Shown here piece after piece: positions 8,976 through 26,670 of a stretch of 64,000 nucleotides of DNA. The notes beneath the pieces are model-generated. The model ran no database searches. It saw only the letters and a list, made by a program, of their open reading frames with translations, and was not told where the DNA came from. The position numbers and the translations under genes are program-made. How positions within the stretch are numbered: the first letter of the stretch is position 1; every line of letters starts with the position of its first letter. This DNA is from a virus (Duplodnaviria > Caudoviricetes): IMG/VR virus record IMGVR_UViG_3300031813_000669, positions 9,058-73,057 of that record. The stretch is one strand, 5' to 3'.

Positions 8976-10060
8976 ATGGGTATAGAAGTTCCCGATTACG
9001 TTATATTTCAAGGCCGGTGGTTTTGTGAAGATGAAGTCACCGCCAATTATGTTCGATGGTCTGAATGGAAAAACATACCAGAATGGGAATATATTGAAAT
9101 GCGGGAACATATCAAGAAAGGTGCCAAGTACCAAATCCGGATATTGAAGCAAATTCATATTGAAGGATTTGGTGCTGGTGATATAGAATCGAATCCAAAC
9201 GTCTGGGTCAATCCTGGACTCTGATTTTTCATGGGTGGGGCTTGCCTTCCTGGCCGGTTGTGTTAGGATGGTCCCACAAATTGATGAGGAGGTTGTTATG
9301 AAGATGTTCGCATTACAGAATCGGGATGCTACTGAATTTTATTGGTCTACTGAATATGGTTGGACCGATATTGACCATGCTGATTTCTTTTTTGGTAATG
9401 AGCTAGATGAAACCTATTGTTTAGAACTCTTAGACAAGACTAAGGGTAAATGGGTTATCAATGAAGTTAAGTTGGATATTGCAGTATGATTTATTTGTTA
9501 GAAACTACAAAATGGTCTGATGATACCCCAAACCATATCTACACTTTTACTGACAAGAAAACGTCAAAAGTGTCCGGATACATACCAGCTGGTGGAAAGG
9601 ATATTGTTATGTTCAAAAAGCCTATGCCTTTTGATAAACGCAAAAGGACTTTCAAAGAAATCAAACTGGAGTAATCTATGCTTCTACTTGTCAAATTAAT
9701 AATCTATCTTATTTCTGCACATATATTTTATAATGCAGGATTCACTTCAGAAGGAAAACTTTTAGAATTTATTACTTTGATGAGTTGTATTTTATTAATG
9801 GATATATGTTCTTACTTTACAGCAAGACATACTATTATTAAGGAACTCTTTGAACAAGAAGAAGAATGATTAGCCAATTTTATAATTCCCTTATTGATCT
9901 CCAAGAATGTATTGAAACCCTAAAACAATCTGAATCCCTGTCTGATCTTGATGTGTCTGAACCGGAATTGAAGGCCATGAAGTTCCTGTATCGTTCCTGT
10001 GGTGAATTCCGGGCCATCTATGAGAACCTAGAGGATGATGACGGCTACCGATCCCATTGA
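8976..10060 (+). CDS. Run of five small hypothetical proteins (8976..9224, about 9298..9489, 9486..9674, 9678..9869, 9866..10060)
   Basis: Tightly packed ORFs; promoter TTGCCT-16-TAGGAT at 9242-9269. Confidence 0.6.
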
Positions 10061-14030: not shown

Positions 14031-14807
14031 ATGGCTACTATTGCTAAAGATGTTGTAACGTCAGAGGCACCACTACTCAATAAGGCGTGGTTGACCGCTG
14101 CATTTGGTATCTATGCTGTGTTCTATTTCTGGGTACGTTGGTATGAAGGCGTATACGGATGGGCTGCAGGACTAGATTCATTCGCACCAGAGTTTGAAAC
14201 TTATTGGATGAATTTCTTGTATACAGAAATTGTCCTAGAAGTGACAACTGCAAGTATTCTATGGGGTTATATTTGGAAGTCAAGGGATCGTAACCTTGCC
14301 GCTATTACTCCAAGGGAAGAACTCCGCCGTAATATGACACACCTTGTATGGTTGTTTGCATACGCAAATGCAATCTACTGGGGTGCATCATACTTTACTG
14401 AACAGGATGGTACTTGGCATCAGACTATCGTAAGAGATACTGATTTTACTCCAAGTCATATCATTGAGTTCTACCTGTCATACCCAATCTACATTATCAC
14501 TGGATTTGCGGCATTCTTGTATGCCAAGACCCGTCTGCCATTCTTTGCAGAAGGTCTATCCCTGCCTTACCTGGTGACTGTGGTTGGTCCTTTCATGATT
14601 CTACCTAATGTTGGCCTCAACGAATGGGGACACACCTTCTGGTTCATGGAGGAACTCTTTGTGGCTCCCCTCCATTACGGATTTGTGTTCTTCGGATGGT
14701 TGGCACTAGCAATTGCAGGAGTTCTTCTCCAAGTGTTTGCCTCATTTGGCAACCTTATTGGCAAAGAAGTAACTGAAGCAGTAGACAGTGGTCTTATTGC
14801 TAAGTAA
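14031..14807 (+). CDS. pmoC: Particulate methane monooxygenase subunit C (auxiliary metabolic gene)
   Basis: WVRWYEGVYGW.AGLDSFAPEFETYW; EQDGTWHQTIVRDTDFTPSHIIEFY (D126/H130/H143); NVGLNEWGHTFWFMEELFVAPLH (N197/H201/H215); Methylococcus-like C-terminus AVDSGLIAK. Confidence 0.98.
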   Translation: MATIAKDVVTSEAPLLNKAWLTAAFGIYAVFYFWVRWYEGVYGWAAGLDSFAPEFETYWMNFLYTEIVLEVTTASILWGYIWKSRDRNLAAITPREELRRNMTHLVWLFAYANAIYWGASYFTEQDGTWHQTIVRDTDFTPSHIIEFYLSYPIYIITGFAAFLYAKTRLPFFAEGLSLPYLVTVVGPFMILPNVGLNEWGHTFWFMEELFVAPLHYGFVFFGWLALAIAGVLLQVFASFGNLIGKEVTEAVDSGLIAK

Positions 14808-23937: not shown

Positions 23938-24069
23938 ATGAAAGTAAAAGAACTCATACAAAAATATTTCGAAGCAATCTTCAACAAAGACTCCCAAAAG
24001 GAAGAAAAGTTGTATAAGAAGATTACCAAGAAGAGTCTGAAAGGTAAAAAGACTCAAAGAATTCGTTGA
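23938..24069 (+). CDS. Small basic hypothetical protein (43 aa), probably leaderless
   Basis: MKVKELIQKYFEAIFNKDSQKEEKLYKKITKKSLKGKKTQRIR; ATG 6 nt after the -10; TGA overlaps the next ATG. Confidence 0.55.
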   Translation: MKVKELIQKYFEAIFNKDSQKEEKLYKKITKKSLKGKKTQRIR

Positions 24070-24713
24070 TGTTGTTGAAAATAATGATACTGGAAATAAA
24101 TGAAAAAGATTTAACCGATATCAAAAGAAAAATTAAATATCTGGTTAATCTCAAAGAAAACTTAATGAAAGAACAAGATATTAGGCTTGTTCAGGATGAT
24201 AAACTTGAGAAAAAACTTAGAGGTAAGGAAAAAGATTACCAATCAATATTGAGATTATATGAATCTAATATTAGTCAAATTTATGAGAAAAAAGATATAA
24301 ATTCTTTTTATGTTTATTTTCATTGTGATCCCAATATACCATTGAATATTAATAAAAATGCAAAAAATTTATTTGCAGCTTCTATAGGATTAACTCATCA
24401 ACCTTTCTATGTTGGTAAAGGAACAGGTGATAGATTCAATGATACTAACAGGAATGATAGTTACGCAAAGAAAAAACAACAGATAAAACAGTCCGACAAA
24501 GAAATTATTATAGTTAAATGGAAAGAGAATTTAACTGAAGATGAATCTTTTTCATATGAATCAAAATTTATTGATATTTTTGGATTAATTTCGTTCAGTC
24601 AATATAATTGGTTGGTCAATTTAGACGAAGGTAAAGATAAAGAAAAAAGAAGAAATCTATATAAGAGAGGTTCAAAAAGAATTTTACTATCGAATAAAAT
24701 GATAGTTAATTAA
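24066..24713 (+). CDS. GIY-YIG-like endonuclease
   Basis: FYVYFHCDP...PFYVGKGTGDR, E..SFSYESKFI..FG, LVN. Confidence 0.8.
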   Translation: MMLLKIMILEINEKDLTDIKRKIKYLVNLKENLMKEQDIRLVQDDKLEKKLRGKEKDYQSILRLYESNISQIYEKKDINSFYVYFHCDPNIPLNINKNAKNLFAASIGLTHQPFYVGKGTGDRFNDTNRNDSYAKKKQQIKQSDKEIIIVKWKENLTEDESFSYESKFIDIFGLISFSQYNWLVNLDEGKDKEKRRNLYKRGSKRILLSNKMIVN

Positions 24714-24715
24714 TC

Positions 24716-24789
24716 TGCCACATATTTCTGTGGCAACTTTATAATGTAGTTGCAGGAAGACAGCGGGGCAGTACCGCTCCACTCCACCA
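24716..24789 (+). ncRNA. ssrA: Permuted tmRNA, acceptor (3') piece
   Basis: GAC-AGCGG-GGCAGTA-CCGCT T-arm, then CCACTCC-ACCA. The 5' boundary is approximate. Confidence 0.88.
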
Positions 24790-24800
24790 AAAGGACATTT

Positions 24801-24962
24801 ATGACAGATTTGGAAATAATAGAAGAAGTCAATCAATGGTTTAGTAAAAATCATCATATGTTCAAAACTGATGAATACTACGGGATTGATATTGTCTGTG
24901 AGTTGTATAAACTTGTCAATAAGTGTGCTTCTGATGGGGTGGAACCAGTATCGATTCGGTAA
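24801..24962 (+). CDS. 53-aa ORF in the tmRNA intervening segment
   Basis: AAGGA SD at 24791-24795, ATG at 24801; MTDLEIIEEVNQWFSKNHHMFKTDEYYGIDIVCELYKLVNKCASDGVEPVSIR. Confidence 0.55.
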   Translation: MTDLEIIEEVNQWFSKNHHMFKTDEYYGIDIVCELYKLVNKCASDGVEPVSIR

Positions 24963-25130
24963 TGAAGTTATAAGGGGATCGGCAAGAATCAGAAGCCGTT
25001 AGGATTGGGGTTACCCGGTCGAAGATGATAAATAAAAGTAATTGCAAACGATAGCGATTATTCTTACGCTCTTGCAGCGTAAGTGAGGTTTCGGTAGGTT
25101 GACCTTATCACAAGAATAACCTACCACTTT
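24936..25130 (+). ncRNA. ssrA: Permuted tmRNA, coding (5') piece with tag ORF 25044..25082
   Basis: GGGGTGG pairs with CCACTCC including G3.U70; pseudoknot CGGC/GCCG plus AATC/GATT; TAATT-GCA resume context; tag ANDSDYSYALAA-stop; second pseudoknot GTGAGG/CCTTAT plus GGTAGGTT/AACCTACC. The 3' end is approximate. Confidence 0.9.
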
Positions 25131-25668: not shown

Positions 25669-25843
25669 CACAGAGATCAAACTATGATATCCTTTACTGT
25701 ACATGAATATTGTGAAGATGGTATAATGATAACCAGGCATGAACCTATTGAACCTCCTGTTCAAGGTCTGTCTCCAAATTATACATCTACAATCAAAATG
25801 AAAAAGTCTGAATTGACGCATCTAATTAATATATTGAGTGATT

Positions 25844-26071
25844 ATGTCGAAACCAAGTAAGGATGAAATACAAGAATTTAGTATGATGATTGAGGTTATG
25901 GCATCCGATCTTAAATGTAATAGGTTGGATGCCATTCTTCATCATTGTGAAGAAACTGGTCTTGAAGTTGAAGTGGCCAGCACATTACTATCATCTGCTC
26001 TGAAAGGTAAAATCAGAGAAGAATCTGAACAACAAAATTTGGTAAAGAAATCATCTAAACTGCCAATATGA
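25844..26071 (+). CDS. gp33: Late promoter transcription coactivator
   Basis: FS..IE......DAILH.CEE.GLEVE.ASTLLS.ALK.KI..E....NL.K; directly upstream of gp59. Confidence 0.85.
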   Translation: MSKPSKDEIQEFSMMIEVMASDLKCNRLDAILHHCEETGLEVEVASTLLSSALKGKIREESEQQNLVKKSSKLPI

Positions 26072-26670
26072 TTTTAATTGAAGGTGAAGGTTTTAGTGCC
26101 TACGCCATTTATAATGCAATACATCTGCATTTTACTTCAAGTAGTTATGATTACTTCAAGTATAATGGCGGTACTAATGTAAGTAAAGATTCATTTCTGA
26201 AAAGGAATGATAAATATAAGTTTCATAAACTATCCAGAAAATACTCAAATGATGAGTTAAGAGATTATTTTGTCTCTAATTTTATTCATGCTGAGGTAAA
26301 CTGGGTAGGTGATATTGTAGGTGAAACGGGTGAAACTACCTATCGTGACTGGAAGAAAAGGAATCAAAGTCTGACTTATGTATATCAGAATGATATCAAG
26401 ACTTTATTTGATGAGGTAGATAGTCCAGGTGATCTTTTGGCAATTAAGTCAGGTAACTATCCTAGACTGTTGAAGGTAACAATGGAAGGTAGAATTTCAC
26501 TTGAAACTTTATGTATATTGAATGATATTATGAATTTCTTTCCTATGTGGGAAAAAAAGATAGATGATGATATAATATGGCCGACCTGGAAAAGAAAGGT
26601 TGAACGATATACACCGTTTATCAATTATGATAAAGATAAGTTTAAGAAGATACTGAAGGAAGAAATATGA
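26068..26670 (+). CDS. gp59: Helicase loader
   Basis: AY.IY.AI.LHFTS.SYDYFKYNG; DKYKFHKLSRKY; ISLETL.IL. Confidence 0.92.
   Translation: MILIEGEGFSAYAIYNAIHLHFTSSSYDYFKYNGGTNVSKDSFLKRNDKYKFHKLSRKYSNDELRDYFVSNFIHAEVNWVGDIVGETGETTYRDWKKRNQSLTYVYQNDIKTLFDEVDSPGDLLAIKSGNYPRLLKVTMEGRISLETLCILNDIMNFFPMWEKKIDDDIIWPTWKRKVERYTPFINYDKDKFKKILKEEI

Follow-up and report, generated by a model that had tools for sequence, protein, structure and literature searches.

How a bacteriophage whose pmoC gene points to a gammaproteobacterial methanotroph came to carry a two-piece transfer-messenger RNA (tmRNA) with a T-loop typical of Alphaproteobacteria, and whether this RNA works in such a host, is the question raised by a locus in IMG/VR record IMGVR_UViG_3300031813_000669. 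We analysed the window, a stretch of 64,000 nucleotides (positions 9,058 to 73,057) of this 73,057-bp contig (~34% G+C, estimated by CheckV to be ~44% complete). Judged by its sequence and predicted folding, the plus-strand segment 24716-25125 of the window is a genuine circularly permuted (two-piece) tmRNA gene (ssrA) on a phage, and very probably a functional ssrA of a T4-like myovirus with, most likely, a type Ib methanotroph (Methylococcaceae) as its host. Rfam cmscan matched the full RF04321 model (tmRNA_permuted, positions 1-213) to 24724-25082 with 83.4 bits (E 1.8e-14), again when the whole contig was searched, and RF01849 (alpha_tmRNA) to 24717-25083 with 60.7 bits. Both scores exceed the gathering scores of these models (47 and 50, respectively), and the best model for the gene within the clan was the alpha type. 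Every sequence element listed in a first-pass annotation, made from the letters alone, was found where that annotation had placed it. Its reading of the locus as a permuted tmRNA was borne out by the RF04321 match, by cofolding and by covariation. The start at 24716 also held, while the 3′ pseudoknot was found to end at 25125 and not at 25130.

The gene is arranged as an acceptor piece, a spacer of 146 nucleotides and a coding piece, with all features on the plus strand. The acceptor piece opens with a 5′ hairpin (TGCCAC...GTGGCA, 24716-24735), which corresponds to positions 40-58 of the alpha_tmRNA model. It continues with the 3′ strands of helix P2 (P2b, 24737-24745; P2a, 24749-24753 and 24755-24757) and a T-arm (24762-24778) that was recognized from the sequence and by Rfam, with the stem AGCGG/CCGCT and the loop GGCAGTA of the alpha-type GGCRGUA. 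The acceptor 3′ strand CCACTCC (24779-24785), A73 (24786) and an encoded CCA (24787-24789) complete the piece. The intervening segment (24790-24935) is presumably excised from the precursor, and RNase P would cut between 24935 and 24936. The coding piece starts with the acceptor 5′ strand GGGGTGG (24936-24942), which was identified by sequence, cofolding and covariation. The two acceptor strands pair at 7/7 positions, G24938 and T24783 form the G3.U70 pair, and together with A73 and CCA the alanine identity set is complete. A D-loop analogue (24943-24954) follows, with a conserved TCGA whose four nucleotides (T238, C239, G240 and A241) are invariant in a 25-sequence alignment (A2), and then the 5′ strands of P2 (P2a, 24955-24957 and 24959-24963; P2b, 24967-24975). 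In the minimum-free-energy cofold, P2 comprises 17 bp in total, including the P2b inter-piece helix of GTTATAAGG (24967-24975) with CTTTATAAT (24737-24745), which has 9 bp, two of them G.U. The region of the first pseudoknot (PK1, 24980-25016) contains stem 1 (CGGC 24980-24983/GCCG 24995-24998) and a hairpin (GGG 25007-25009/CCC 25014-25016). An A/U-rich stretch precedes the resume codon in the context TAATT-GCA. The tag frame (25044-25082; sequence and Rfam) resumes at GCA 25044, encodes the peptide ANDSDYSYALAA and ends with the stop codon TAA (25080-25082). The second pseudoknot (PK2, 25084-25125) is of the H-type, with stem A formed by TGAGGT (25084-25089) and ACCTTA (25102-25107) and stem B by GGTAGGTT (25093-25100) and AACCTACC (25118-25125).

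Cofolding of both pieces returned exactly the predicted helices at -48.8 kcal/mol, with an inter-piece binding energy of z = -3.6 relative to shuffled partners. The T-loop and acceptor design of the window gene recurred on 27 viral contigs when IMG/VR was scanned for this pattern; 25 of these carry a permuted or alpha tmRNA by Rfam. Related loci, which are labelled with L-numbers below, were also obtained via the neighbouring gp59, whose product is 50-61% identical to that of the window. In dozens of uncultured T4-like phages, a permuted tmRNA was found on the strand of gp59, 1-2 kb upstream of it. Parsing of ~60 phage permuted tmRNA genes yielded at least nine acceptor-stem variants. In alignment A2, the T-stem was paired in 25/25 relatives with both-sided changes at four of the five pairs, and the acceptor stem in 25/25 with compensatory changes at three of the seven pairs and an invariant G3.U70 (25/25). 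Thus, GGGGTGG and CCACTCC, for which missing covariation had been named beforehand as evidence against the gene, do covary in relatives. The covariation score was 0.266, compared to 0.099 in shuffles, and was reached by 0/500 shuffles. For PK1 and PK2, column counts from MAFFT were degraded by shifted columns, and stems were located in each sequence separately instead. Stem 1 of PK1 occurs as CGTC/GACG, CGCC/GGCG, CGGT/ACCG and CACC/GGTG, and the hairpin of this region (25007-25016) is 97% paired with one compensatory pair. Both stems of PK2 covary and remain complementary despite widely differing sequences, stem B being represented by GGTGAGT/ACTCACC, CCAGGTGA/TCACCTGG, AGCGATTGT/ACAATCGTT and TGAGGGTGT/ACATCCTCA. 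The 5′ hairpin is kept in L091 by compensatory changes (GCTATC/GATAGC), and the tags of the relatives all follow the pattern AND...(L/I/M/T/V)AA.

We then asked what the T-loop says about the origin of the gene. The paradigm of the alphaproteobacterial two-piece tmRNA is reportedly that of Caulobacter, from work by Keiler and colleagues in 2000. The window gene shares with the alphaproteobacterial form (RF01849) the permuted order, GGCRGUA, G3.U70, P2, stem 1 of PK1, the tag and one downstream pseudoknot; however, it matches only positions 40-271 of that model. The betaproteobacterial form (RF01850) is permuted too and is the best model for the relatives L121 (120 bits) and L126 (99 bits), unlike the window gene, which scores best as alpha-type, so that the phage family straddles both models. 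Among syntenic relatives in general, the best model of the clan was the beta type for some, the alpha type for others and neither for many. The loop GGCAGTA appears sporadically among the syntenic genes (L112 and L180), the remaining parts of which match genes with TGCGATT or TTCGATT loops. As the first-pass annotation had stated, GGCRGUA is an alphaproteobacterial feature among bacteria: ~72 of 80 among the matches listed for GGGGCRGTACC-N7-TCCACCA in bacteria were labelled Alphaproteobacteria, with A and G variants and including SAR11. The exact T-arm and acceptor pattern had 0 matches in 185,579 species genomes, and because the acceptor sequence was fixed in them, two narrower loop patterns were matched only 1 and 6 times. 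No bacterial tmRNA resembling any module of the window gene beyond the loop motif was found in these searches. We also observed alpha-type T-arm and acceptor sequences on contigs binned as Marinimicrobia, Saccharibacteria (three metagenome-assembled genomes) and Bacteroidaceae (L244, L259, L278, L292 and L294); these contigs may belong to Alphaproteobacteria or phages and have been mis-binned, or two-piece tmRNA may have carriers that were not expected.

For comparison between phages, the gene was divided into module A (the acceptor piece), S (the spacer), B (the 5′ part of the coding piece with PK1) and C (the tag with PK2). L091 is 100% identical to the window in A and 95% in the 5′ part of B, while its tag and PK2 differ and its spacer of 106 nucleotides cannot be aligned with that of the window. 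The opposite combination was found in L204, which lies on a 178-kb contig and was recovered in three independent assemblies. Here, S is 95% and C 96-98% identical in DNA and the tag peptide, as read by ARAGORN, is the same, whereas A and the 5′ part of B are wholly different (T-arm GGGAG/TTCGACT/CTCCC, acceptor GGGGGTG/CACCTCC). L212 combines a tRNA-like domain of the L204 type with PK1 of the window type, and L207 and L209 have a third type of tRNA-like domain. The spacer is 88-98% identical in L204, L207, L209 and L212; the flanking core genes are only 65-82% identical, modules have thus been exchanged among fairly divergent phages, and the window gene is a recombinational mosaic. Spacer, PK1 and tag/PK2 assort independently among phages. 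In contrast, A always travels with a compatible 5′ part of B, although the shared spacer separates the two. Cognate acceptor and coding pieces cofolded at -18 to -22 kcal/mol, compared to -9 to -13 kcal/mol for swapped pieces, with a weaker effect for the third type. Because L204 has a canonical loop together with the same tag and a near-identical spacer and PK2, the alpha T-loop is an exchangeable module and not a lineage marker. Descent of the whole gene from an alphaproteobacterial lineage, for which the T-loop had been taken as a sign, was not supported: the terminal helices are unmatched by the alpha model, the same tag and PK2 occur in a gene whose tRNA-like domain is not of the alpha type, the relatives are split between alpha and beta models, and no bacterial module match was found.

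The host was assessed from a stand-alone pmoC (14031-14807, plus strand; PF04896, 407 bits). Its product is 82-95% identical to PmoC of Methylococcaceae (type Ib), some of it encoded on bacterial contigs of 277-452 kb and on a 5.3-Mb complete sequence. The host is thus most likely a type Ib gammaproteobacterial methanotroph of this family, in agreement with the expectation that pmoC points to a gammaproteobacterium. The accompanying expectation that this group has one-piece tmRNA held as well. All five of the nearest Methylococcaceae genomes carry a full-length one-piece tmRNA (203-226 bits) and none a permuted one above the cut-off. In the host order, the permuted match stayed below the cut-off in 119/121 sampled genomes, the other two reaching 47.4 and 48.5 bits, compared to 65-132 bits for the phage permuted genes. 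Because the host genomes have one-piece tmRNA and none of the nearest ones a permuted tmRNA above the cut-off, the phage RNA is architecturally foreign to its probable host. The tags of the Methylococcaceae are ANDDNYALAA and ANDDVYALAA, and the phage tag ends in the same YALAA.

Several results weigh against a functional tmRNA in a Methylococcaceae phage. The alpha_tmRNA match leaves model positions 1-39 and 272-355, the terminal helices, unmatched. Of the H-type pseudoknot that the first-pass annotation had placed in front of the tag, stem 1 covaries, and the second stem is unsupported: the candidate AAUC (24987-24990)/GAUU (25003-25006) has 4 bp without covariation, a consistent partner was not found across relatives, and several relatives show only the hairpin. 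The complete pairing of acceptor and T-stem among relatives is partly a result of selection, as our parser demanded perfect pairing of both; the same genes were called independently by Rfam and ARAGORN. ARAGORN, one of the checks proposed beforehand, did not call the window gene. It called most syntenic relatives and also missed L091, L094, L207 and L209 although these are Rfam-supported. Because such Rfam-supported permuted genes are missed, surveys of phage tmRNA by ARAGORN only probably undercount them. A promoter scan found 7 matches where 8.2 were expected by chance, a clear terminator is absent 3′ of PK2, and within the gene a simple scan marked a single terminator-like element, the 5′ hairpin of the acceptor piece. 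Among the sequencing runs searched for the locus, no RNA run contained it. Use of host SmpB is plausible, as no smpB was found on the contig; with ~44% completeness, a phage smpB is possible elsewhere. Finally, the host assignment draws on PmoC similarity as its single line of evidence.

The last point leaves room for a different host. The phage might infect an alphaproteobacterial methanotroph such as Methylocystis, in which case the two-piece tmRNA would fit the host and pmoC would have come from a gammaproteobacterium indirectly. The alpha-type T-loop and the alpha_tmRNA match agree with this, pmoC phages predicted for Methylocystis exist (PMC7674155), and pmoC-bearing viral records with PmoC ~60% identical to that of the window mostly have GGCRGUA loops and alpha-style tags. 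However, a PmoC of 82-95% identity to Methylococcaceae, including the copies on bacterial contigs and the 5.3-Mb complete sequence, is at odds with such a host; L204 has the identical tag and a near-identical spacer and PK2, yet a non-alpha tRNA-like domain; records with PmoC of 72-80% identity are permuted too, with canonical T-loops; and no alphaproteobacterial tmRNA resembles any module. We therefore regard an alphaproteobacterial host as improbable.

In a Methylococcaceae host, the window tmRNA most likely functions with alanyl-tRNA synthetase (AlaRS), SmpB, EF-Tu and RNase P of the host. The steps given here follow established tmRNA biology (general knowledge; summaries in PMC9004378 and PMC11915505). 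A single precursor would be transcribed, RNase P would cut before G24936, and the acceptor piece would be trimmed to the encoded CCA at 24789. The two RNAs would remain base-paired and would be charged by host AlaRS via G3.U70. Host SmpB and EF-Tu would deliver the charged RNA to stalled ribosomes, translation would resume at GCA, and the ...YALAA tail would send the product to host proteases. Ribosome rescue could in this way be kept on the phage's own supply during infection, by means of an architecture that the host lacks. A role as backup against host defences that cleave tRNA or tmRNA, as suggested by the first-pass annotation, cannot be deduced from these results.

The gene might instead take no part in ribosome rescue: it could be a relic in decay, or act as a decoy, tying up SmpB or AlaRS of the host and blocking its trans-translation. 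There is a precedent for the latter, since the tmRNA of mycobacteriophage DS6A, which lacks a coding sequence, was reported to inhibit endogenous tmRNA in E. coli (PMC11915505), and the window gene is recombinationally scrambled, with an open reading frame (ORF) overlapping the 5′ end of its coding piece. Yet the frame of the tag is uninterrupted, its resume context is conserved and its end, YALAA, resembles that of the host tags; T-stem, acceptor stem, PK1 stem 1 and the PK2 stems are maintained by compensatory change. Phages with diverged core genes share 96-98% identity in the tag and PK2, and the tRNA-like halves co-segregate as compatible pairs. Together, these features argue for selection on the complete tmRNA function and make a relic or decoy very unlikely. 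As for the mosaic being an artefact of metagenome assembly, in which strains were switched over shared k-mers, co-occurring phages have spacers of 95-98% identity, a setting where de Bruijn assemblers can switch strain, and L091 is a single short contig, but this, too, we hold to be highly improbable, as, among contigs from four lake runs, one from another run spans 24500-24992 (upstream gene, A, S and B) and another run's contig spans 24976-25398 (PK1, tag, PK2 and downstream), each with 0 differences, the other arrangements were each recovered in 2-3 independent assemblies (L204/L205/L206, L207/L208 and L209/L210), and three switches within 400 nucleotides that always give compatible halves are unlikely.

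Melnitz, a T4-like phage of OM43, has been described as carrying a two-piece, alpha-like ssrA, and its host lineage has a different tmRNA (Buchholz et al. 2022, PMC9004378). Of the 133 distinct phage tmRNA structures counted in that work, 53 were two-piece, and pelagimyophage tmRNAs are discussed there as well (PMC9004378). The first-pass annotation had therefore overstated how new the phenomenon is: the kind of element, its locus and the mismatch with a non-alphaproteobacterial host are already published for Melnitz (PMC9004378), whereas the prevalence, the mosaicism and the spacer gene are new. We located the Melnitz gene (EXVC044M, MZ577097; RF04321, 113 bits; tag ANDNYVPVDYALAA), and the window gene is positionally orthologous to it. 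Both phages are myoviruses of the T4-like (Kyanoviridae-like) kind, the permuted tmRNA occupies the same slot in each, both genes have the T-loop GGCAGTA, and both occur with a host lineage without this type of tmRNA. The two genes show no similarity detectable by blastn, and the tags differ (ANDNYVPVDYALAA versus ANDSDYSYALAA); blastn of the window gene against 50,697 GenBank phage records likewise returned no match. Unlike Melnitz, the window phage is from freshwater, namely a lake, and its probable host is a methanotroph. A glutamine riboswitch is associated with the Melnitz-type locus, whereas in the 64 kb of the window the only Rfam matches at gathering level were the two to tmRNA. Exchange of modules is documented here for the window gene but undescribed for Melnitz. 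One-piece tmRNAs of mycobacteriophages and huge phages are also phage-borne, and their supposed role is to sustain translation, or to sense it, while the phage infects (PMC7162821, PMC11915505); they differ in having the standard gene order, and some huge phages encode SmpB, which was not seen on the window contig.

Permuted tmRNA proved frequent in other pmoC phages. Among 25 large pmoC-bearing IMG/VR records (G006-G030), 13 have a permuted tmRNA above the cut-off (L421-L433) and 0 a standard one; of the five that are at least 90% complete, four carry the permuted gene. The T-loop tracks the PmoC type. Records with PmoC ~60% identical to that of the window mostly have GGCRGUA loops and alpha-style tags, and those with 72-80% identity have canonical loops (TTCGACT/TTCGAAA) in a gene that is still permuted. 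This prevalence is new; tmRNA is absent from the main text of the paper on pmoC phages (PMC7674155).

The phage itself is a T4-like myovirus. Its genes include gp59, gp32, PhoH, a PD-(D/E)XK nuclease, baseplate wedge and tube proteins, a tape-measure-like protein, lytic tail proteins and gp33. At the tmRNA locus the order is PhoH, PD-(D/E)XK nuclease, ssrA, gp33, gp59 and gp32, an order also present in Melnitz and in dozens of T4-like phages from freshwater, all uncultured. In cyanomyophages, the synteny around this slot is preserved and the tmRNA is absent. The late-transcription coactivator gp33 (25838-26071, plus strand; phrog_254, 2e-14) and the helicase loader gp59 (26068-26670, plus strand; T4_Gp59_N and T4_Gp59_C) together form the synteny anchor shared with Melnitz. 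In the 73 kb of this tmRNA-carrying phage (the window and the other 9 kb), ARAGORN found no tRNA genes.

The spacer of the window gene is filled by an ORF of 53 amino acids (24801-24962, plus strand), with a Shine-Dalgarno (SD) sequence AAAGGA at 24790-24795, ATG at 24801 and TAA at 24960-24962. It extends 27 nucleotides into the coding piece, with its stop beyond the RNase P site, so that, with an RNase P cut before G24936, the ORF on the excised spacer would lack a stop codon. Related phages carry five homologues in the equivalent position, with 83-98% identity. Conservation covers residues 1-46 and is lost in the tails, from the point at which the frame runs into the tmRNA. Because the Nei-Gojobori ratio of nonsynonymous to synonymous differences (pN/pS) is only 0.04-0.13, the ORF is judged to be a real protein gene under purifying selection. 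No match to it was found in PHROGs, NCBIfam or the ESM Atlas, and the five homologues have no precomputed Pfam domain. A further homologue in L211 apparently lay outside a tmRNA; this context was discarded, as the contig starts with an Illumina adapter. Positions 1-47 of L211, a contig in the ENA metagenome collection, are an Illumina TruSeq adapter fused to phage DNA, an assembly artefact in the public record. Among the T4-like genes, spacer-filling ORFs occur only in the three longest spacers, those of the window (146 nucleotides), L162 (175) and Melnitz (142). In the tmRNA genes of L162 (2624-3099) and Melnitz (L202:1472-1924), the ORFs are also SD-led, have ~50 amino acids and start 7-11 nucleotides after CCA. 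The three peptides are mutually unrelated, and the Melnitz ORF is unannotated in GenBank. A conserved protein gene in the intervening segment is new; no description of a protein gene inside this segment of a tmRNA was found in the literature searched. Directly upstream of the G with which the coding piece starts, the motif CTTCTGAT (24927-24935) is near-invariant in 25 phage permuted tmRNA genes, and in many relatives a -10-like TATACT stands just upstream of it. CTTCTGAT could be a determinant for RNase P or other processing, or an internal promoter for the coding piece.

On the other side of the gene, the slot between the PD-(D/E)XK nuclease and the tmRNA is variable among phages. In the window it holds a gene for 215 amino acids (24066-24713, plus strand) that ends 3 nucleotides before the tmRNA gene. 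It is tentatively GIY-YIG-like, its match to Pfam LEM-3_GIY-YIG scoring 26.5 bits, below the cut-off of 27. It had no PDB or NCBIfam match and no DNA match in any relative. The slot of L207 and L209 (2410-2940 in each) contains an HNH/EndoVII-type endonuclease (phrog_3322, 2e-24), that of L204 and L212 is empty, and that of L091 contains a glycine-rich ORF of 233 amino acids that is not a nuclease. The tRNA cluster of T4 contains the gene of SegB, a GIY-YIG homing endonuclease that recognizes DNA of the T-psi-C arm and co-converts flanking genes (PMC2330249). Like the window, the T4 tRNA region with SegB has a free-standing nuclease-like gene beside an RNA gene and is mosaic between phages; in contrast to SegB, the nuclease call in the window is below threshold, and L091 shares the tRNA-like domain without such a gene. 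By analogy, a SegB-like nuclease as the driver of mosaicism is a plausible hypothesis. We also considered whether the upstream nuclease-like gene travels together with the alpha-like tRNA-like domain; this was not supported, given the unrelated 233-aa gene in L091, and because L091 lacks a nuclease-like gene upstream, a simple link between nuclease and mosaicism is unsupported. A more far-reaching proposal, possible but doubtful, is that the spacers of phage tmRNAs are a niche for small, exchanged protein genes. In the window phage, RNase P maturation would remove the stop of the 45-codon spacer gene, and its mRNA would become a substrate of the flanking tmRNA, as a feedback loop or timer. Co-adapted tRNA-like halves would be swapped between co-infecting phages, maybe driven by slot nucleases that target T-arm DNA as SegB does.

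Taken alone, the window tmRNA is one more phage two-piece ssrA of the Melnitz type. It extends two-piece phage tmRNA to freshwater methanotroph phages, and the exchange of its parts among co-occurring phages makes the T-loop type unusable for naming a donor lineage or a past host switch, which is the inference drawn for Melnitz. The family also constitutes a natural module-swap experiment, in which the acceptor piece and the 5′ part of the coding piece are always found in compatible pairs. Should the RNA prove to function with the SmpB, AlaRS and RNase P of Methylococcaceae, little of the tmRNA architecture would be read by the host machinery.

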